From a virus (Duplodnaviria > Heunggongvirae > Uroviricota > Caudoviricetes): 43,624 nt of DNA. Within the stretch, counting starts at the first letter, position 1, and the number at the start of each line of letters is the position of its first letter. The notes under the pieces are model-generated. The model was not told where the DNA came from and ran no database searches. It saw nothing but the letters and a program-made list of their open reading frames with translations. The position numbers and the translations under genes are program-made. The stretch covers positions 1 through 43,624 of the IMG/VR virus record IMGVR_UViG_2869924733_000007; one strand, written 5' to 3'. Positions 10,543 to 25,851 of this stretch are shown here, in pieces.

Positions 10543-10747
10543 GATGGCAGCCTCCGCGATGAATTTGATTAACTCACCACCGGAGGTAGCAATCTCATGG
10601 GTGGTGAGACGTACAGGGTTGCTACAACCGGTCATCACGGAACCCGGCCAGTCTTGCGACTGCCCCGCACGCCCCACCATAATTTGAATGTGGCTGTGCA
10701 TTACGCATAAAAAAACCGCCTGAGCGCGGTTATGCGCCGTGAATGAC
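10543..10747 (-). promoter_or_regulatory. Conserved structured leader with intrinsic terminator upstream of rha (copy A)
   Basis: Terminator accgcgctcaggcggttttttt (10708..10732 on the minus strand), then a conserved tcaccacc...ggtggtga stem; about 75 percent identical to the region upstream of the second antirepressor-like gene. Confidence 0.45.
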
Positions 10748-11231
10748 TTCGGGGTAGCAATCCCGGCACCCGTTTTATGAGGTGCAGGTGCACTATAATT
10801 CCACCCGTTCTGGTTTTCAATAGCTACATTCAACATTTTCTCTTTCCTTTCATCACCGAAGTGAACTTTGTTGATGCGGTGCCTGGTGCCTCCAGGTGAC
10901 GTTAACCAGTTAATAATTAACGCCGGAATAAGGGATTTTCCTTACTGTTTTAACTGTTCCGCGTGCGCTGAGCCGCATTCACCGCATCACAAAATTCACT
11001 TTAAAAAGGGCGGACATCAGCCAGCAATTAAACCGATGCCGCCAACTGGTACTTCACACAGCAATGTCGTTATTTACAACCGGAGGCGCACTCCCACCAT
11101 TTAAATTTAACAGACAAGACCGACTCTTTATGGATACCGGAAATGCGCCTTCGTGTTGTGCCCGGTTTTATTTCACCACCTCCGGGCTTTGGTGGTATCT
11201 TTACTGAAGTTCTCGCACAACCAGTAAGGAA

Positions 11232-14798: not shown

Positions 14799-15153
14799 TT
14801 TCAGGAGGATTTATGGCGAAACCTTTTACTCCCGAACAGCGGGAAGAACTGAAGACGCGAATTGTGGAACTCGTGCATCAGGACGGTCGGGTCACGATTC
14901 GGCAGTTGTCCGATGAAACAGGTATCAGTCGTGCGTCTGTCGGTCGCTTATGCATAGAACTGGTCGCAAGTGGTGATGTATATAATTCTGGCTACGGCTT
15001 ATTCCCGTCTGAACAGGCTCGCAAGGACTGGCAAAGCGCCCGCAAAAAACTCTCGAGAGTAAAGGTGAGGAAACCATCTGTGGTTGATCTGGATCTTATC
15101 TGGTCATTACTGAGGTGTACTGGCAATAGCGGACACTACCATTTGTTCTTTTT

Positions 15154-15972
15154 TTAAGCAGCCATCTGATGATATTGTTCCCTGAAGGCTGCCGGGGAGA
15201 TATTCCCCAGACGAGAGTGACGACGCTGACGATTGTAGAAAATCTCAATGTATTCCCGTATTACTGAGATGGCTTCATCCCGGTTATTAAAACGATAGTG
15301 GCTCAGGCTCTCATTTTTCAGCGTTCCCCAGAAGCTTTCCATCGGAGCGTTGTCGTAACAGTTACCTTTACGCGACATTGATGTTTTCAGACCAAACTGC
15401 TCCTGTATGACCCGGTAATCGTATGCGCAGTACTGTGAACCTCGATCAGAGTGGTGGATTAGCCCGGCAGGTGGGCGCTGGCTCCTGAGCGCCATAAACA
15501 GGGCTTTACCTGTCAGCTCTTTTGTCATGCGCTCTCCCATGGCGTAGCCGACAATTTCGCACGTATAAACATCTTTGATGCCAGCGAGGTACAACCATCC
15601 CTCCTGTGTGGCAACATACGTCAGGTCCGCCACCCAGACCTGATTTGGTGCTGTAGGAGCGAACGTCTGGTTCAGCAGATTTGGCGCAACTGGCAGATTG
15701 TGGTTCGGGTTCGTAGTCGCTCTGAACTTGCGTTTCTGCTTACAGCGTAGCCTTAGCTCCTTACGAAGACGTGCCAGTCGGTCACGACCAACGATGATGC
15801 CATTCTCTGCCAGCTCCGTCTGGAGCCGCCGGGTTCCATATGTTTCGCGAGTGCGGATATGTGCCACCTTAATCTCCAGTTTTAGCCGCTCATCACTTTG
15901 TTTTCTGTCTGAGGGTTCATGCTGTACCCAGTTGTAATAACCGCTCCTGGATACACCAAATACCTGACACAT
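15154..15972 (-). CDS. IS600 OrfB
   Basis: 272-aa ORF, one substitution relative to copy 1 (R to W at position 15). Confidence 0.8.
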   Translation of the reverse strand: MCQVFGVSRSGYYNWVQHEPSDRKQSDERLKLEIKVAHIRTRETYGTRRLQTELAENGIIVGRDRLARLRKELRLRCKQKRKFRATTNPNHNLPVAPNLLNQTFAPTAPNQVWVADLTYVATQEGWLYLAGIKDVYTCEIVGYAMGERMTKELTGKALFMALRSQRPPAGLIHHSDRGSQYCAYDYRVIQEQFGLKTSMSRKGNCYDNAPMESFWGTLKNESLSHYRFNNRDEAISVIREYIEIFYNRQRRHSRLGNISPAAFREQYHQMAA

Positions 15973-16049
15973 CGCTTCAATGGGAAATTGTTGTCGCCAT
16001 TGTTCGATTAACGCGTATTTTTCAGCGACTCCTGTGCAAAATACGCTGT

Positions 16050-17270
16050 TGTAGATTCAATCTGTCAATGCAACACCCCTTTCAATTATCTCTTTCGGTG
16101 TTTTGAACTTCAGTGTCTTTCTCGGTCTGTTGTTTAGCTGAGCAGCAACCAGATCTAGTTCATGTTGAGTATATTGGGCAAGACATGTCTTTTTAGGAAA
16201 GTACTGCCGAATTAGCCCATTTGTGTTCTCATTTGTTCCCCGCTGCCAAGGACTCTGAGGATCGCAGAAGTAAACTTTAACGCCGGTGCTGACAGTAAAT
16301 TCTAGATGTCTGGCCAGTTCCATTCCTCTGTCCCATGTCAGTGATTTTCTGAGTTCTGACGGTAAACTCAGGAATTTGTCGGTAAGAGCCTGATTTACTG
16401 AGACAGAATCTTTGCCCCTGAGTCTAAGGATGATCGTATAACGTGATTTTCGGTCTACAAGTGTGGCTATATGAGAGTTTTTTGTACCTGAGACTAAATC
16501 GCCCTCCCAATGCCCCAGAGAGCGTCTGTTATCGATATTTCGGGAACGTTCGTGAATTGGTGTTCCGTTCACTATGTTAATCGTACCTCTTTCGCCTTTG
16601 CGGGTATGACGCCTGCCATGGCGAAGGCTATGCGACCGTCGCAGATGCTGTATATTCAGGTGGTGTAGCGCTTCACGGCTACGAAAGTACAGCGTTTTAT
16701 AAATTGTCTCAGGTGATATTCGCAGCGTTTTTTGACGTGGTTTTGTTCGCCTTAACCATCCTGATATTTGCTCTGGAGACCATTTCATCTCCAGCTTTTC
16801 CAGAACAAGCTTTCGCAATGGTAAATTTTGATCCAGTAAGCACGGTTTTGGCCTTTTCGCCATTCTGTTGGCTCGGTTATTAGCATCAACAGCTTTGTAA
16901 TAGCGTCTGCCCCGATTACGCTGAACTTCACGTGAGATCGTCGAAGGACTGCGATTCAGCGCAGTAGCTATCGCACGAATGCTCATTTTGGCTGACAAAC
17001 CAGCTCGTATCTCCTCGCGCTCAGACAGTGTCAGGTGAGCTACAGCCCGCTTACGCTCATGGGGTTTTATGCCGCCAGTATCCCTTAACATAGTGAAGAT
17101 CGTTCCGGGTTTTGAACCCAGGATATTCGCTATTTCACTGAAGCCTGTTCCGTTCTTCCATAGTTCAAAAACAGAGGCTTTTTCCTCTGCTGTAAATGTT
17201 CGTCTCATTCAAAAAACCTCCGCAACCCCATGTTTTCACATAACTGTTGCGTTGACCAATTGAATCTACA
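16050..17270 (-). mobile_element. IS30 nested in IS600 (copy 2)
   Basis: Same offset inside the composite as copy 1. Confidence 0.8.
16057..17208 (-). CDS. IS30 transposase
   Basis: 383-aa ORF identical to copy 1. Confidence 0.9.
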   Translation of the reverse strand: MRRTFTAEEKASVFELWKNGTGFSEIANILGSKPGTIFTMLRDTGGIKPHERKRAVAHLTLSEREEIRAGLSAKMSIRAIATALNRSPSTISREVQRNRGRRYYKAVDANNRANRMAKRPKPCLLDQNLPLRKLVLEKLEMKWSPEQISGWLRRTKPRQKTLRISPETIYKTLYFRSREALHHLNIQHLRRSHSLRHGRRHTRKGERGTINIVNGTPIHERSRNIDNRRSLGHWEGDLVSGTKNSHIATLVDRKSRYTIILRLRGKDSVSVNQALTDKFLSLPSELRKSLTWDRGMELARHLEFTVSTGVKVYFCDPQSPWQRGTNENTNGLIRQYFPKKTCLAQYTQHELDLVAAQLNNRPRKTLKFKTPKEIIERGVALTD

Positions 17271-17533
17271 GTTGCTTTTTTTAATATATCTCGCTCAAGG
17301 CGAGCTTCATTTAACGCCTTACGCAGTTGCAGAATTTCAGATTCCAGTTCAGCCACCGTGCGGGAACCAGGAGTACCGAGTCCTTTTCTGGCGGCGGTAA
17401 CCCATTGTCCTAAAGTGCCTTCAGGAAGGGATAATCGGGAAGCGCCTTCACTGATCGAAAGTTGATTTTCAAGAACCGTTCTGACAGCTTCGGCTTTGAA
17501 CTCTTTAGAGTAACGTTGGGTTTTTCTGCTCAT
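17271..17533 (-). CDS. IS600 OrfA (3' end displaced by IS30)
   Basis: Identical to copy 1 OrfA. Confidence 0.8.
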
Positions 17534-17782
17534 TATTAGCTCCTTCTGATGCCATTCTATTTCAGGAAGGAGTGTCCGTTAAACTCAGGCTACCTCATAC
17601 CTGACGGAGAAATACATCGTTACGACAGGCGTCATAATATAATTTGTACTGAGTGTCGTAAAAGCGAAGTTATGCAGCGTGTACTGGCTTTCTATCAGGG
17701 TAATTTTCAGGAGGTGGTACTGTGAGTGAAATTAGTTATCAGGCACTAATTGCCGCAGGCATTCGCATCAAAGGAGAGTGAC

Positions 17783-18221: not shown

Positions 18222-19522
18222 CTGAGGAATTCCCAGAAAACGAGACAGACATAGCATTATGTGATCTACTGATTTGTGCCAACAATTCAATGAGATCACT
18301 GCTATGCCTGTTCATAAAGTATGTCAGAATTTCTTCCGGGATGCCTTAGCACCATTTCATCAGTACCGACAAAATGCCCTGATGGATGCCACAGTGGTGT
18401 TAATCAACGGAGCATCTCTGACGCTGACCAGTATCGGACGTTTTTTCCCGGGTAATGCACAAGTTAAGAATAAGAGCAAACGTATTGATCGCCTCATGGG
18501 TAATGAGGCGCTCCATCGCGATATTCCAATGATTTTCAGGAATATCACTTCAATGCTGACACGGCAGTTATCTTTATGTGTAATAGCCGTAGACTGGAGT
18601 GGCTATCCCTCCCAGGAGCATCATGTTCTTCGTGCCAGCCTTCTGTGTGACGGGCGTTCCATTCCGTTATTGAGTAAGGTTGTTCCTTCTGAAAAACAAA
18701 ATAATCCATTGATACAACATGATTTCCTTGATTCCCTTGCTCAATCCCTGCCCCCCGATGCCAGGGTTATTATTGTCACGGATGCTGGATTTCAGAGCGC
18801 ATGGTTTCACCATATTACTTCTCTGGGCTGGGATTTTATTGGTCGGATCAGAAATAACGTTCAGTATTGCCTCGATAACGCGCCTGAAAGATGGTTAAAA
18901 GTGTCGGATAGCCCTGAATGTAAAACACCGGAATATATGGGGGCTGGAAGGCTGGTTAAAGAAAGGAAAAAAAGCATCCGGGGGCATTTTTACACCTATA
19001 AGAAATCGGCAAAAGGGCGAAAAAAGAAACGTTCGAAAGGTCAGAGTGGTTTAAACAAAACAGACAAAGAACAGAGCAAATCAGCAAAAGAAGCCTGGTT
19101 GATCTTCAGCAGTACAAATGACTTCAGAGCGCGAGAAATCATCAAGTTATACAGTCGGCGAATGCAGATAGAGCAAAACTTTCGTGATGAAAAGAACGGG
19201 CGCTTCGGATTTGGTCTTCGGGCCAGCAAAAGTCGTTCAACAGGAAGAATTCTGGTTCTGAGTCTGCTGGCAACGTTGAGCACTATCGTAATGTGGTTAC
19301 TCGGTTATCACGCTGAAAATAAAGGGTTACACCTGAAATATCAGGCTAACAGCATTAAATCCCGGCGGGTTATCTCATATCTGACGTTAGCGAAGAATGT
19401 TCTTCGACACTCGCCACTTATTTTAAGACGAACAGTACTGAGCACAGTTCTAAACCATCTGTCCAGAACCTACCGAAATATGGTGTTGGTTTATTAGCAG
19501 TAATTTTGTGGGGATCCCTCAG
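18222..19522 (+). mobile_element. IS10-like (IS4-family) insertion sequence, about 1.3 kb, with target-site duplication gcccgaaagg
   Basis: Imperfect terminal inverted repeats CTGAGGAATTCCCAGAAAAC / rc CTGAGGGATCCCCACAAAAT resembling IS10 outside ends; flanking duplicate at 18212..18221 and 19523..19532. Confidence 0.65.
18304..19497 (+). CDS. IS4-family (IS10-like) DDE transposase
   Basis: KRIDRLMGN, TDAGFQSAWF...LGWDFIGRIR, and YSRRMQIEQNFRDEK (Y-R-E-K motif) align with recalled IS10 transposase. Confidence 0.7.
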   Translation: MPVHKVCQNFFRDALAPFHQYRQNALMDATVVLINGASLTLTSIGRFFPGNAQVKNKSKRIDRLMGNEALHRDIPMIFRNITSMLTRQLSLCVIAVDWSGYPSQEHHVLRASLLCDGRSIPLLSKVVPSEKQNNPLIQHDFLDSLAQSLPPDARVIIVTDAGFQSAWFHHITSLGWDFIGRIRNNVQYCLDNAPERWLKVSDSPECKTPEYMGAGRLVKERKKSIRGHFYTYKKSAKGRKKKRSKGQSGLNKTDKEQSKSAKEAWLIFSSTNDFRAREIIKLYSRRMQIEQNFRDEKNGRFGFGLRASKSRSTGRILVLSLLATLSTIVMWLLGYHAENKGLHLKYQANSIKSRRVISYLTLAKNVLRHSPLILRRTVLSTVLNHLSRTYRNMVLVY

Positions 19523-19543: not shown

Positions 19544-19726
19544 ATGCGAAAGTTCAAAATTATTATTGAAACGGGAATAGCCGGTGGAGATTTCGAGGAT
19601 GAATTCGAAGTGGATGATGATGCGACGCCTGATGAAATACATGACGAAGCAAAAGATATTTTCTTTAACTACTGCAATTACTCATATCACGAAATAAAAG
19701 ACGAAGAGGAAGAACAAAATGGCTGA
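19544..19726 (+). CDS. Small acidic phage protein (60 aa), nin-region-like
   Basis: ORF MRKFKIIIETGIAGGDFEDEFEVDDD..., highly acidic. Confidence 0.4.
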   Translation: MRKFKIIIETGIAGGDFEDEFEVDDDATPDEIHDEAKDIFFNYCNYSYHEIKDEEEEQNG

Positions 19727-19895
19727 TTTTGGTTCAACTAAATACAACGTCAGTTTTGAAGAATGGCATGAACTGTTAATGGACTATGCAGAGTTACGTG
19801 GTGGCAGTGCTGCTGATGCTGAAGCATGGCGTGATGATTATGAAGCAGGAAAAACTCCGGTCGAAGCATATTGTGATGAGTGGGGCGATGAATGA
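19719..19895 (+). CDS. Small acidic phage protein (58 aa)
   Basis: ORF MADFGSTKYNVSFEEWHELLMDYAELRGGSAADAEAWRDDYEAGKTPVEAYCDEWGDE read directly from the sequence (below the ORF-track size cutoff). Confidence 0.35.
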   Translation: MADFGSTKYNVSFEEWHELLMDYAELRGGSAADAEAWRDDYEAGKTPVEAYCDEWGDE

Positions 19896-20256
19896 GCGAG
19901 ATTAATTATCAGGAAGGGCATGAAACGGCGGGGCAAGCAAAAACAGTGGCATGGCGATATCGCTACGTGAAAAAAAAGGCGTTACGGACTTTCAGGGGAA
20001 GTGGTGGTCTGGTGACTGGAAATATGTACCGAAAAAAGAGGATTGTAACGACAGGCCGAACTATGAAATTCAGGCCTTATTCACTGCCCCGCCAGTCCAA
20101 GTGACATCAGAAGGACTGGTTAAAGCCGTGCGCTTTTATGAACAGGTAAAGCGTGAGAATCCACCAGTCGAAACAGGAGCATGGAAAGACGCTGTTGACT
20201 GGGTACTCAAAGAGGCTTGCTGTGCTGTCATTCTGGGTAAAGCCGACAACCTACTA

Positions 20257-21409
20257 AATAGCTGCGCGGAATAGTAGATCACTTTGAGGGAACTTAGCCC
20301 GGATTGTGCGATCTGATCAATCGCCAAATCAAAACAAATCACCAACCGGACTGAGCAATGCCGATCATAGCACCAATTTCCCGTGACGAACGACGCCTGA
20401 TGCAGAAAGCCATCCATAAAACACACGATAAAAATTATGCCCGCAGACTGACTGCCATGCTGATGCTGCACCGGGGCGACCGTGTCAGCGACGTTGCCAG
20501 AACGCTCTGCTGCGCCCGTTCCTCTGTTGGACGCTGGATTAACTGGTTCACGCAGTCGGGTGTTGAGGGACTGAAATCATTACCTGCCGGGCGTGCCCGT
20601 CGCTGGCCGTTTGAGCATATCTGCACACTGTTACGTGAGCTGGTAAAACATTCTCCCGGCGACTTTGTCTACCAGCGTTCACGCTGGAGTACAGAACTGC
20701 TGGCAATAAAAATCAATGAGATAACCGGTTGCCAGTTAAATGCCGGAACCGTTCGCCGCTGGTTGCCGTCTGCGGGGATTGTGTGGCGAAGGGCTGCGCC
20801 AACTCTGCGTATCCGTGACCCGCATAAAGATGAAAAGATGGCAGCAATCCATAAAGCACTGGACGAATGCAGCGCAGAGCATCCGGTCTTTTATGAAGAT
20901 GAAGTGGATATCCATCTTCATCCCAAAATCGGTGCGGACTGGCAACTGCGCGGACAGCAAAAACGGGTGGTCACGCCGGGACAGAATGAAAAATATTATC
21001 TGGCCGGAGCGCTGCACAGCGGGACAGGTAAAGTCAGCTATGTGGGCGGCAACAGCAAAAGTTCGGCGCTGTTCATCAGCCTGCTGAAGCGGCTTAAAGC
21101 GACATACCGTCGGGCGAAAACCATCACGCTGATCGTGGACAACTACATTATCCACAAAAGCCGGGAAACACAGAGCTGGCTGAAGGAGAACCCGAAGTTC
21201 AGGGGCATTTATCAGCCGGTTTACTCGCCATGGGTGAATCATGTTGAACGGCTATGGCAGGCACTTCACGACACAATAACGCGTAATCATCAGTGCCGCT
21301 CAATGTGGCAACTGTTGAAAAAAGTTCGCCATTTTATGGAAACCGTCAGCCCATTCCCCGGAGGCAAACATGGACTGGCAAAAGTGTAGCGGTATTAAGC
21401 GCAGCTATT
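20257..21409 (+). mobile_element. IS630 copy 2 (1153 bp) at CTAG with TA duplication
   Basis: TA at 20255..20256 and 21410..21411; same terminal repeats as copy 1. Confidence 0.85.
20358..21389 (+). CDS. IS630 transposase
   Basis: 343-aa ORF, one substitution relative to copy 1. Confidence 0.9.
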   Translation: MPIIAPISRDERRLMQKAIHKTHDKNYARRLTAMLMLHRGDRVSDVARTLCCARSSVGRWINWFTQSGVEGLKSLPAGRARRWPFEHICTLLRELVKHSPGDFVYQRSRWSTELLAIKINEITGCQLNAGTVRRWLPSAGIVWRRAAPTLRIRDPHKDEKMAAIHKALDECSAEHPVFYEDEVDIHLHPKIGADWQLRGQQKRVVTPGQNEKYYLAGALHSGTGKVSYVGGNSKSSALFISLLKRLKATYRRAKTITLIVDNYIIHKSRETQSWLKENPKFRGIYQPVYSPWVNHVERLWQALHDTITRNHQCRSMWQLLKKVRHFMETVSPFPGGKHGLAKV

Positions 21410-21560
21410 TAGCATCCAGTAATCAGGTTAGCGAATTAACAATGTGGGTTAAACGACTGGTCAGTCAACTGAAAAAAGCTAAGCCTGACTGCAAATTACC
21501 GGAGAAGGCGATGGATTACCTGAAGCGAAATGGACTGATAAGCGTGGAGGATGTTTTACG

Positions 21561-21644
21561 ATGACCTGGCCTGAAGCATTCACCACGGTAGGAATTGCAA
21601 TGGCGGTGGCGCTGGTTGTGTATTCGATTTGCCGCTGGGGGTAA
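21561..21644 (+). CDS. 27-aa hydrophobic peptide, translationally coupled (ATGA overlap) to the upstream gene
   Basis: MTWPEAFTTVGIAMAVALVVYSICRWG; single predicted transmembrane helix; followed by a hairpin terminator. Confidence 0.3.
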   Translation: MTWPEAFTTVGIAMAVALVVYSICRWG

Positions 21645-21961: not shown

Positions 21962-22137
21962 GTTAAATCCTTCGTTGTTGGGGAATATTGTTAGTTTAGC
22001 CTGTAGTGGCTGTTGACGACAACGTTAATCCGGGGCTATATTCCTCACGCGCCAGCAAAATCTGGCGTCGGGATTGGCGTCCCGGATATCGAAATGAGGT
22101 GTACTGGCAATAGCGGACACTACCATTTGTTCTTTTT

Positions 22138-22956
22138 TTAAGCAGCCATCTGATGATATTGTTCCCTGAAGGCTGCCGGGGAGATATTCCCCAGACGAGA
22201 GTGACGACGCTGACGATTGTAGAAAATCTCAATGTATTCCCGTATTACTGAGATGGCTTCATCCCGGTTATTAAAACGATAGTGGCTCAGGCTCTCATTT
22301 TTCAGCGTTCCCCAGAAGCTTTCCATCGGAGCGTTGTCGTAACAGTTACCTTTACGCGACATTGATGTTTTCAGACCAAACTGCTCCTGTATGACCCGGT
22401 AATCGTATGCGCAGTACTGTGAACCTCGATCAGAGTGGTGGATTAGCCCGGCAGGTGGGCGCTGGCTCCTGAGCGCCATAAACAGGGCTTTACCTGTCAG
22501 CTCTTTTGTCATGCGCTCTCCCATGGCGTAGCCGACAATTTCGCACGTATAAACATCTTTGATGCCAGCGAGGTACAACCATCCCTCCTGTGTGGCAACA
22601 TACGTCAGGTCCGCCACCCAGACCTGATTTGGTGCTGTAGGAGCGAACGTCTGGTTCAGCAGATTTGGCGCAACTGGCAGATTGTGGTTCGGGTTCGTAG
22701 TCGCTCTGAACTTGCGTTTCTGCTTACAGCGTAGCCTTAGCTCCTTACGAAGACGTGCCAGTCGGTCACGACCAACGATGATGCCATTCTCTGCCAGCTC
22801 CGTCTGGAGCCGCCGGGTTCCATATGTTTCGCGAGTGCGGATATGGGCCACCTTAATCTCCAGTTTTAGCCGCTCATCACTTTGTTTTCTGTCTGAGGGT
22901 TCATGCTGTACCCGGTTGTAATAACCGCTCCTGGATACACCAAATACCTGACACAT
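22138..22956 (-). CDS. IS600 OrfB
   Basis: 272-aa ORF identical to copy 1. Confidence 0.8.
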   Translation of the reverse strand: MCQVFGVSRSGYYNRVQHEPSDRKQSDERLKLEIKVAHIRTRETYGTRRLQTELAENGIIVGRDRLARLRKELRLRCKQKRKFRATTNPNHNLPVAPNLLNQTFAPTAPNQVWVADLTYVATQEGWLYLAGIKDVYTCEIVGYAMGERMTKELTGKALFMALRSQRPPAGLIHHSDRGSQYCAYDYRVIQEQFGLKTSMSRKGNCYDNAPMESFWGTLKNESLSHYRFNNRDEAISVIREYIEIFYNRQRRHSRLGNISPAAFREQYHQMAA

Positions 22957-23033
22957 CGCTTCAATGGGAAATTGTTGTCGCCATTGTTCGATTAACGCGT
23001 ATTTTTCAGCGACTCCTGTGCAAAATACGCTGT

Positions 23034-24254
23034 TGTAGATTCAATCTGTCAATGCAACACCCCTTTCAATTATCTCTTTCGGTGTTTTGAACTTCAGTGT
23101 CTTTCTCGGTCTGTTGTTTAGCTGAGCAGCAACCAGATCTAGTTCATGTTGAGTATATTGGGCAAGACATGTCTTTTTAGGAAAGTACTGCCGAATTAGC
23201 CCATTTGTGTTCTCATTTGTTCCCCGCTGCCAAGGACTCTGAGGATCGCAGAAGTAAACTTTAACGCCGGTGCTGACAGTAAATTCTAGATGTCTGGCCA
23301 GTTCCATTCCTCTGTCCCATGTCAGTGATTTTCTGAGTTCTGACGGTAAACTCAGGAATTTGTCGGTAAGAGCCTGATTTACTGAGACAGAATCTTTGCC
23401 CCTGAGTCTAAGGATGATCGTATAACGTGATTTTCGGTCTACAAGTGTGGCTATATGAGAGTTTTTTGTACCTGAGACTAAATCGCCCTCCCAATGCCCC
23501 AGAGAGCGTCTGTTATCGATATTTCGGGAACGTTCGTGAATTGGTGTTCCGTTCACTATGTTAATCGTACCTCTTTCGCCTTTGCGGGTATGACGCCTGC
23601 CATGGCGAAGGCTATGCGACCGTCGCAGATGCTGTATATTCAGGTGGTGTAGCGCTTCACGGCTACGAAAGTACAGCGTTTTATAAATTGTCTCAGGTGA
23701 TATTCGCAGCGTTTTTTGACGTGGTTTTGTTCGCCTTAACCATCCTGATATTTGCTCTGGAGACCATTTCATCTCCAGCTTTTCCAGAACAAGCTTTCGC
23801 AATGGTAAATTTTGATCCAGTAAGCACGGTTTTGGCCTTTTCGCCATTCTGTTGGCTCGGTTATTAGCATCAACAGCTTTGTAATAGCGTCTGCCCCGAT
23901 TACGCTGAACTTCACGTGAGATCGTCGAAGGACTGCGATTCAGCGCAGTAGCTATCGCACGAATGCTCATTTTGGCTGACAAACCAGCTCGTATCTCCTC
24001 GCGCTCAGACAGTGTCAGGTGAGCTACAGCCCGCTTACGCTCATGGGGTTTTATGCCGCCAGTATCCCTTAACATAGTGAAGATCGTTCCGGGTTTTGAA
24101 CCCAGGATATTCGCTATTTCACTGAAGCCTGTTCCGTTCTTCCATAGTTCAAAAACAGAGGCTTTTTCCTCTGCTGTAAATGTTCGTCTCATTCAAAAAA
24201 CCTCCGCAACCCCATGTTTTCACATAACTGTTGCGTTGACCAATTGAATCTACA
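23034..24254 (-). mobile_element. IS30 nested in IS600 (copy 3)
   Basis: Same offset as the other copies. Confidence 0.8.
23041..24192 (-). CDS. IS30 transposase
   Basis: 383-aa ORF identical to the other copies. Confidence 0.9.
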   Translation of the reverse strand: MRRTFTAEEKASVFELWKNGTGFSEIANILGSKPGTIFTMLRDTGGIKPHERKRAVAHLTLSEREEIRAGLSAKMSIRAIATALNRSPSTISREVQRNRGRRYYKAVDANNRANRMAKRPKPCLLDQNLPLRKLVLEKLEMKWSPEQISGWLRRTKPRQKTLRISPETIYKTLYFRSREALHHLNIQHLRRSHSLRHGRRHTRKGERGTINIVNGTPIHERSRNIDNRRSLGHWEGDLVSGTKNSHIATLVDRKSRYTIILRLRGKDSVSVNQALTDKFLSLPSELRKSLTWDRGMELARHLEFTVSTGVKVYFCDPQSPWQRGTNENTNGLIRQYFPKKTCLAQYTQHELDLVAAQLNNRPRKTLKFKTPKEIIERGVALTD

Positions 24255-24517
24255 GTTGCTTTTTTTAATATATCTCGCTCAAGGCGAGCTTCATTTAACG
24301 CCTTACGCAGTTGCAGAATTTCAGATTCCAGTTCAGCCACCGTGCGGGAACCAGGAGTACCGAGTCCTTTTCTGGCGGCGGTAACCCATTGTCCTAAAGT
24401 GCCTTCAGGAAGGGATAATCGGGAAGCGCCTTCACTGATCGAAAGTTGATTTTCAAGAACCGTTCTGACAGCTTCGGCTTTGAACTCTTTAGAGTAACGT
24501 TGGGTTTTTCTGCTCAT
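24255..24517 (-). CDS. IS600 OrfA (3' end displaced by IS30)
   Basis: Identical to copy 1 OrfA. Confidence 0.8.
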
Positions 24518-24584
24518 TATTAGCTCCTTCTGATGCCATTCTATTTCAGGAAGGAGTGTCCGTTAAACTCAGGCTACCTCAAAA

Positions 24585-24775
24585 CGGTGCATAACCGCGC
24601 TGGCGGTTTTTTTATGCGCTAAGCACAGTCACATTCGCGATTTATGGTGGGCTGTGTGGGGGAGTTGAGAGACTCGCCGGATGTTTCGACCGGTTACGCC
24701 AACCCTGCACAGTTCACCACCCAGCGATTGGCGTCGCAGGTGGTGAGTTAAAAACCATCGAAACGCGAGGTCGTT
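24585..24775 (+). promoter_or_regulatory. Conserved structured leader with intrinsic terminator (24591..24614) upstream of the second antirepressor-like gene (copy B)
   Basis: gcataaccgcgctggcggtttttttatgcg plus conserved tcaccacc...ggtggtgagttaa stem; homologous to 10543..10747 in inverted orientation. Confidence 0.45.
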
Positions 24776-25540: not shown

Positions 25541-25617
25541 GGCCCTTTAGCTCAGTTGGTCAGAGCGAGCGACTCATAATCGCCAGGTCGCTGGTTCAAG
25601 TCCAGCAAGGGCCACCA
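25541..25617 (+). tRNA. tRNA with CAT anticodon, Ile2 (lysidine)-like
   Basis: Cloverleaf: acceptor ggccctt/aagggcc, T-arm gctgg-ttcaagt-ccagc, anticodon loop ctCATaa, 3' CCA; resembles recalled ileX/ileY. Confidence 0.7.
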
Positions 25618-25618
25618 A

Positions 25619-25695
25619 CCACCACTAGCTCATCCGGATAGAGCATCAACCTTCTAAGTTGACGGTGCGAGGTTCGAGTCCTCGGTGGTGGGCCA
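25619..25695 (+). tRNA. tRNA-Arg (anticodon TCT)
   Basis: Acceptor ccaccac/gtggtgg, anticodon stem tcaac/gttga with loop ctTCTaa, T-arm cgagg-ttcgagt-cctcg, 3' CCA. Confidence 0.65.
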
Positions 25696-25697
25696 GC

Positions 25698-25773
<76 letters not shown>

Positions 25774-25776
25774 TAT

Positions 25777-25851
<75 letters not shown>

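Follow-up and report, generated by a model that had tools for sequence, protein, structure and literature searches.

In a 43,624-nucleotide viral sequence assigned to the Caudoviricetes (IMG/VR record IMGVR_UViG_2869924733_000007; hereafter the window), two open reading frames overlap across a run of eight adenines containing A_AAA_AAG, a heptamer shared with the frameshift sites of dnaX and of IS3-family elements. The question raised by this locus is whether the run is a recoding site at which a fusion protein is made or a lesion in a gene that is normally read in a single frame. A sequence-only reading of the window had put forward a programmed frameshift, a homopolymer slippage mutation, and two overlapping start choices. 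The mutation was among these three alternatives and agrees with the single-frame orthologues described below, in which six adenines (A6) stand in place of eight (A8), but the title and emphasis of that reading leaned toward programmed frameshifting. Judged from sequence comparison, the A8 run is very probably a two-base expansion in a doubly disrupted prophage pseudogene, in which the heptamer would be a by-product and no programmed frameshift signal would exist.

Layout of the interrupted gene

The features of the locus, all on the plus strand, are as follows.

19719..19895 (+): upstream 58-aa prophage ORF, phrog_519; its TGA overlaps the ATG of the phrog_660 gene (ATGA, 19892-19895)
19892..19969 (+): codons 1-26 of the phrog_660 gene in frame 0, MSEINYQEGHETAGQAKTVAWRYRYV; conserved in all intact orthologues, where it runs on directly into the rest of the protein
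19951..19953 (+): chance out-of-frame ATG that opens the apparent -1 ORF; A6 orthologues read these bases as GCA-TGG (Ala-Trp), and there is no upstream SD-like sequence
19970..19977 (+): A8 tract where intact orthologues have A6 (Lys-Lys); a +2 expansion; contains A_AAA_AAG (19972-19978)
19979..20104 (+): out-of-frame tail of the frame-0 ORF (ALRTFRGSGG...RQSK*), without a coding signature
19978..20256 (+): gene body in the -1 frame (GVTDFQGKWWSGDWKYVP...ILGKADNLL), ending at the IS630 insertion point
20257..21409 (+): IS630-family element of 1153 bp with a 343-aa transposase (20358-21389); TA duplicated at 20255-56 and 21410-11
21412..21564 (+): 3' end of the gene (ASSNQVSELTMWVKRLVSQLKKAKPDCKLPEKAMDYLKRNGLISVEDVLR*), lying beyond IS630 and thus cut off from the body; matches the 171-aa orthologues at their C-terminus

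The frame-0 ORF (19892..20104; MSEINYQEGHETAGQAK...) encodes 70 aa and stops at 20102-20104, and the second ORF (19951..20274; MAISLREKKGVTDFQGKWW...) encodes 107 aa. The two starts lie 59 nucleotides apart, so the 107-aa ORF is in the -1 frame of the 70-aa ORF. In the frame of the ATG at 19892, the codons across the tract are GTG (19967-69), AAA (19970-72), AAA (19973-75), and AAG (19976-78), which places A_AAA_AAG (19972-19978) in the canonical X_XXY_YYZ register at the overlap of the frames. The sequence statements on which the programmed-frameshift idea was built, that is, two overlapping ORFs across an 8-A run with A-AAA-AAG, thus all hold against the ORF list and the A8 at 19970-19977. 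The overlap of the upstream stop with the ATG at 19892 occurs in the same arrangement in the RefSeq annotation of orthologues, which identifies 19892 as the true start.

The description of the gene as IS630 disrupted was also borne out. The element at 20257-21409 has terminal inverted repeats (AATAGCTGCGC...), a TA on both sides, and a transposase matching NF033545 at 252 bits (DDE_3 type), all as in the IS630 family, and two relatives of the window allele, L020 and L051, carry the empty site. When the element is removed, the -1 frame joins 21412-21564 and ends in a C-terminus of the same type as that of the 171-aa orthologues, in agreement with the earlier statement that it is the downstream frame that continues across the insertion.

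The gene, an accessory gene of lambdoid prophages, falls into PHROG 660, a family labeled "unknown function" whose profile spans residues 2-171 as one unit. A Pfam search with an intact orthologue gave only a subthreshold AphA_like match (14.9 bits against a cutoff of 27), NCBIfam and PADLOC searches with the intact protein gave no match, and a PDB search with it returned designed proteins only, at E values of 0.0015 or worse. No transposase (HTH, DDE/rve) or dnaX-like content was found in the gene with Pfam and NCBIfam. Members of the family are mosaic. They have in common an N-terminal part of about 110 aa, after which comes either a brief ...NIGIKGE tail (119 aa) or a C-terminal module of 60 aa (171 aa), and the ...PVAWRYRYVKKG... 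segment occurs also within longer proteins with unrelated N-termini.

Tract length in orthologues and the history of the A8 allele

The segment is widespread: of 5426 complete E. coli genomes, 2342 have it, as do many records of phages and prophages. The intact gene is one coding sequence, for example, that of locus L002 (1693-2208; 171 aa; MSEINYQEGHETAGQAKPVAWRYRYVKKDVTDFQGK...), and the 119-aa mosaic form also exists. When the window was aligned with four E. coli loci, the intact coding sequences read GTG-AAA-AAA-G(G/A)C at the site, translated as ...RYRYVKKDVTDFQ..., and the window and one of the four, L001, have two extra A's. A census of tract length covered 124 loci, made up of 119 IMG/VR loci collected by a pattern scan, the four E. 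coli loci, and the window. The tract was AAAAAAGG at 53 of them, AAAAAAGA at 32, and AGAAAAGG at 8; A8 occurred at 20 loci, A7 at 5, and A6 with one G deleted at 6. A six-base tract (A6 or AGAAAA), with the site in frame, was present at 93 of the 124 loci, and for 60 of these 93 a single open frame over the first 110 codons was verified (...RYRYVKKGVTDFQ...; 171-aa or 119-aa proteins). Native ORFs of 171, 119, 129, or 104 aa were confined to the six-base class, and every A7, A8, and G-deleted allele among the 124 was broken. The same length difference was seen from the window's side: among the full-length matches listed in complete E. coli genomes, the best 40 to an IS-free reconstruction of the gene and the best 30 to 19860-20256 were all exactly 2 nt shorter than the query and annotated as plain coding sequences. 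Longer mosaic relatives with other N-termini likewise read straight through the site (...EPVAWRYRYVKKGVTD...).

Since the orthologues have a single frame with A6, the window carries a +2 homopolymer expansion. The sequence-only reading had proposed comparing the A run among orthologues and had anticipated, for a simple mutation, a single continuous frame with seven or nine A's. The continuous frame and the different run length were found, but the run is A6 rather than either guessed length, A6 and A9 being equivalent modulo 3. An orthologous family in one frame with a different A run refutes the programmed frameshift on that reading's own terms.

The following course of events would account for the locus. 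The normal gene is one ORF, of 171 aa or in the shorter mosaic form 119 aa, with an ATG coupled to the stop of the upstream ORF and an A6 tract made up of the Lys-Lys codons AAA-AAA. Replication slippage in the lineage of the window has probably lengthened this tract to A8 (+2 nt), with slippage of DNA polymerase as the presumed mutational mechanism. With A8, translation passes into a frame that ends after 70 codons, and the real frame is left behind as an apparent -1 ORF; the A_AAA_AAG heptamer would then be a product of the expansion and not a selected signal. Drift would have followed, and insertion of IS630 at a TA 279 nt downstream is the second break. The order of the two lesions is indicated by L020 and L051: over this locus their identity to the window is 99.4-99.8%, and they have A8 with an uninterrupted TA at the IS630 site, and so the frameshift came first and the insertion second.

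The A8 allele is common. We sampled 60 evenly spaced records from 1705 E. coli records matching a 55-nt probe, using an A6 query and taking tract length from the length of the aligned target. Among these were 38 A6, 17 A8, and 2 A7 tracts, with 2 more that were one base shorter, which puts A8 at about 28% of E. coli carriers in this sample. Common as it is, A8 appears from its sequence to be a dead allele. A TAG stands at codon 37 of the true frame, eight codons past the tract, in 17 of the 20 A8 loci of the census, and all five A8 alleles inspected in RefSeq are labeled "frameshifted; internal stop." The L001-type allele additionally loses homology beyond window position ~20167. A8 combined with TGG in place of the TAG was found only in the window, L020, and L051, in which the -1 frame is open for 143 codons.

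In a neighbor-joining tree made with the tract removed, the window, L020, and L051 fall inside A6 clades. In a binned comparison, the window allele proved to be a mosaic, nearly identical to the A8+TAG clade over its 5' half, A8 tract included, and similar to the 171-aa A6 alleles over its 3' half. An independent origin of A8 in the clade of the window was weighed, and the near-identity of this 5' half to the A8+TAG clade speaks instead for descent, so that the A8 of the window is probably identical by descent with that of the clade. Haplotypes that are otherwise nearly identical differ in having 6, 7, or 8 A's, for the most part in alleles that TAG or truncation has inactivated anyway. The tract is thus unstable, and by this comparison of haplotypes it appears to have changed length several times.

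The TAG at codon 37 is common to A6, A7, A8, and A6-with-G-deleted alleles (E. coli loci L001, L003, and L126-L129 and IMG/VR loci). Two of the lesions, A8 and the G deletion, lead independently of each other into one alternative frame, with an ORF of 84-85 aa. The pattern is probably the result of drift in a defective prophage passed on vertically.

Recoding signals and rival explanations

The surroundings of the heptamer were examined for the features that accompany recoding. No GGAG, AGGA, or GAGG that could act as an SD-like 5' stimulator is present within 25 nt upstream of the heptamer. The stem-loop or pseudoknot that had been suggested downstream did not appear: the 83 nt past the heptamer have a minimum free energy of -16.1 kcal/mol against -16.7 kcal/mol for shuffled sequences (z 0.24; with flanks, z -1.26), and a scan of 19800-20260 against all 4227 curated RNA families of Rfam gave no match at an E value of ≤10. 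With eight A's, the run lies below the run of at least nine A's or T's taken as the criterion for a transcriptional-slippage recoding site. The A8 motif is no commoner in the window than chance would give (5 runs observed, 8.1 expected); AAAAAAG occurs 33 times against 14 expected, and ten of the 33 lie in five copies of one IS composite.

Conservation of both frames, which the programmed-frameshift idea called for, was not found either. Among 30 distinct intact haplotypes, there were 18 variable sites past the tract at first, 19 at second, and 35 at third codon positions of the true frame; one mosaic outlier haplotype was filtered out of this tally, as it inflated the counts. In the same 30 haplotypes, the synonymous fraction of codon differences was 0.54 in the true frame and 0.16, the lowest value, in the register of the window's zero-frame tail. 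A fraction this low implies that the tail of the 70-aa ORF is no genuine protein.

One close counterpart among known sites is that of E. coli dnaX, where the -1 frameshift uses A_AAA_AAG together with an upstream SD-like element and a downstream stem-loop. The site in the window has the identical heptamer in the correct zero-frame register, decoded by a single tRNA-Lys. It differs from dnaX in lacking an SD-like element, a significant 3' hairpin, and an Rfam match, and its heptamer is not conserved; moreover, the dnaX shift makes a second, truncated product, whereas here the shift would be needed for the only functional product. IS3-family orfA/orfB elements also have A_AAA_AAG at the overlap of two frames, as in the IS600-like copies within the window itself (heptamer at 4155-4161). 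The phrog_660 gene, unlike these, has no HTH or DDE transposase domains and no inverted repeats and is not an IS, whereas the IS600-like ORFs of the same window do match NF033516; the two-frame layout is conserved throughout the IS3 family, and here it is a minority mutant state. It is exceedingly improbable that a programmed -1 frameshift of the dnaX or IS3 type slips at A_AAA_AAG to make a selected fusion protein beside the 70-aa zero-frame product. The register of the heptamer and the open -1 frame in the window, L020, and L051 are what such a mechanism would have, but the heptamer is absent from the 93 of 124 relatives whose site is in frame, the zero-frame tail has no coding signature, in most A8 alleles the -1 frame is closed by a stop after eight codons, transposase or dnaX-like content is lacking in the gene, and neither stimulators nor an Rfam frameshift element accompany the site. 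A bare heptamer shifts far less when the stem-loop is missing (PMC6924986).

Another rival to the pseudogene reading concerns what might still be made from an A8 allele. The facts that sit least easily with a plain mutation are that A_AAA_AAG lies in the correct register, so that the full-length protein plus one Lys would result from a -1 shift, as it would from an A9 transcript; that the -1 frame is open for 143 codons in the three A8 alleles without TAG; and that A8 is frequent among E. coli carriers. The junction peptide predicted from a -1 shift is ...YVKKKGVTDFQGK. A leaky pseudogene or phase-variable switch, in which a contingency tract of 6, 7, or 8 A's has an "off" state at A8 that is partly rescued by ribosomal -1 slippage or by polymerase slippage to A9, with low-level expression tolerated or useful, would draw on the different lengths among near-identical haplotypes. 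It would also draw on the intrinsic shiftiness of A_AAA_AAG, the most shift-prone heptamer in E. coli, for which unselected low-level frameshifting is described in weakly expressed genes (PMC5009743), and on the rescue of 1-nt deletions by C_AAA_AAA alone in pDEST17 (PMC1851650). Against this, A6 to A8 is short for a contingency tract; the runs at which efficient RNA-polymerase slippage is documented have a length of 9 (PMC5009743); the length variants are found for the most part in alleles that TAG or a 3' truncation had killed before, which gives the variation the look of drift in dead DNA; a share of the A7 and A8 calls may stem from sequencing errors in the homopolymer; and in the window the native product is blocked by IS630. 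We consider this explanation improbable, and its stronger form, in which the A tract is a hypermutable switch in a widespread E. coli/Shigella prophage gene and A8 alleles of the L020/L051 type make a selected low-level full-length protein (+1 Lys) by either kind of slippage, decidedly improbable. "Savior" decoding of indels, as in the G run of herpes simplex virus (HSV) thymidine kinase and C_AAA_AAA in pDEST17, resembles the present case in that the indel lies inside a homopolymer that is itself slippery, so that a small rescued fraction is possible. It differs in that there is no sign here of rescue or of selection for it. With IS630 in place, rescue in the window could give only an IS630-truncated product; some ribosomal -1 or RNA-polymerase slippage on A8 is plausible, but it would be adventitious and low level, and no native protein would be possible there.

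Initiation at the ATG at 19951, with the 19892 ORF as a separate small gene, is an explanation that the automatic gene caller might seem to favor, as it called 19951-20274 in the source genome. We regard it as extremely unlikely. No intact orthologue has the ATG at 19951 in frame (GC-ATG-G, read as Ala-Trp in ..VAWRY..), and this ATG has no Shine-Dalgarno sequence, so the proposal of two overlapping start choices also falls away; the N-terminal 26 residues are conserved and fused to the rest in orthologues and in the PHROG 660 profile; and the 19892 start is coupled to the upstream stop by the ATGA overlap. The chance that the run is a sequencing or assembly error appears negligible. Homopolymers are error prone on several platforms, and A7 calls do sit among A8 haplotypes, but the NCBI chromosome CP027027.1 (100% identical to the window) has the same A8, as do a second assembly (L125), both L020 and L051, and about 28% of E. 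coli carriers, and a +2 error recurring across platforms is implausible.

The gene of the window belongs instead with the frameshifted prophage pseudogenes of IS-laden Shigella and E. coli genomes, with which it shares intact single-frame orthologues, a homopolymer indel, a second lesion (IS630), sister alleles with a nonsense codon, and the RefSeq label "frameshifted; internal stop"; there is no material difference. Cases of this kind are known already, and RefSeq annotates this very allele as a pseudogene. Beyond annotation its significance is small, apart from documenting a common dead allele, carried as A8, usually with a nonsense codon, by about a quarter of E. coli segment carriers. Two ORFs overlapping at a homopolymer are what any frameshift mutation gives, and a textbook slippery heptamer at a frame overlap can arise from the frameshift mutation itself, through expansion of a Lys-Lys AAA-AAA tract. 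For this reason, the motif and the overlapping ORFs are no evidence of recoding without conservation in orthologues.

Other mobile elements and RNAs in the window

A second copy of the IS630 element lies at 1703-2862 (-) and is 100% identical to 20253-21412 (+). Five 100%-identical copies of a 2487-bp composite were found at 3839-6325 (+), 15111-17597 (-), 22095-24581 (-), 33880-36366 (+), and 40337-42823 (-). The composite is an IS3-family (IS600-like) element carrying an IS30-family element (1264 + 1221 + 2 = 2487). In copy 1, the 1221-bp IS30 part lies at 4167-5387 with a 2-bp "AC" duplication, 5 nt past the IS600 A_AAA_AAG heptamer (4155-4161) and between orfA and orfB. The composite has multiplied as a unit despite this interruption of the orfAB fusion, which suggests mobilization in trans. 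A literature search for an IS600/IS30 composite found no description of one. L020 has the plain element without IS30. In the window, an IS4-family transposase ORF (18274-19497, +; NF033591, 360 bits) lies directly upstream of the DUF7167 gene; in L020, an IS600-like element abuts this sequence at window position 18992, which indicates nested IS insertions.

Rfam matches at gathering score were obtained at 463-607, 3324-3502, 10597-10785, 22036-22138, 24640-24724, 25541-25848, and 40141-40323. The RNAs matched in the window are SraC/RyeA and SdsR/RyeB; RalA, an antitoxin sRNA of the Rac prophage; four clustered tRNAs; two C4 antisense RNAs with isrK and c4-a1b1 elements (prophage immunity); and CssrB, a chromosome-encoded Shigella sRNA. 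The many IS copies and the Shigella-specific sRNA are consistent with a genome that is accumulating pseudogenes.
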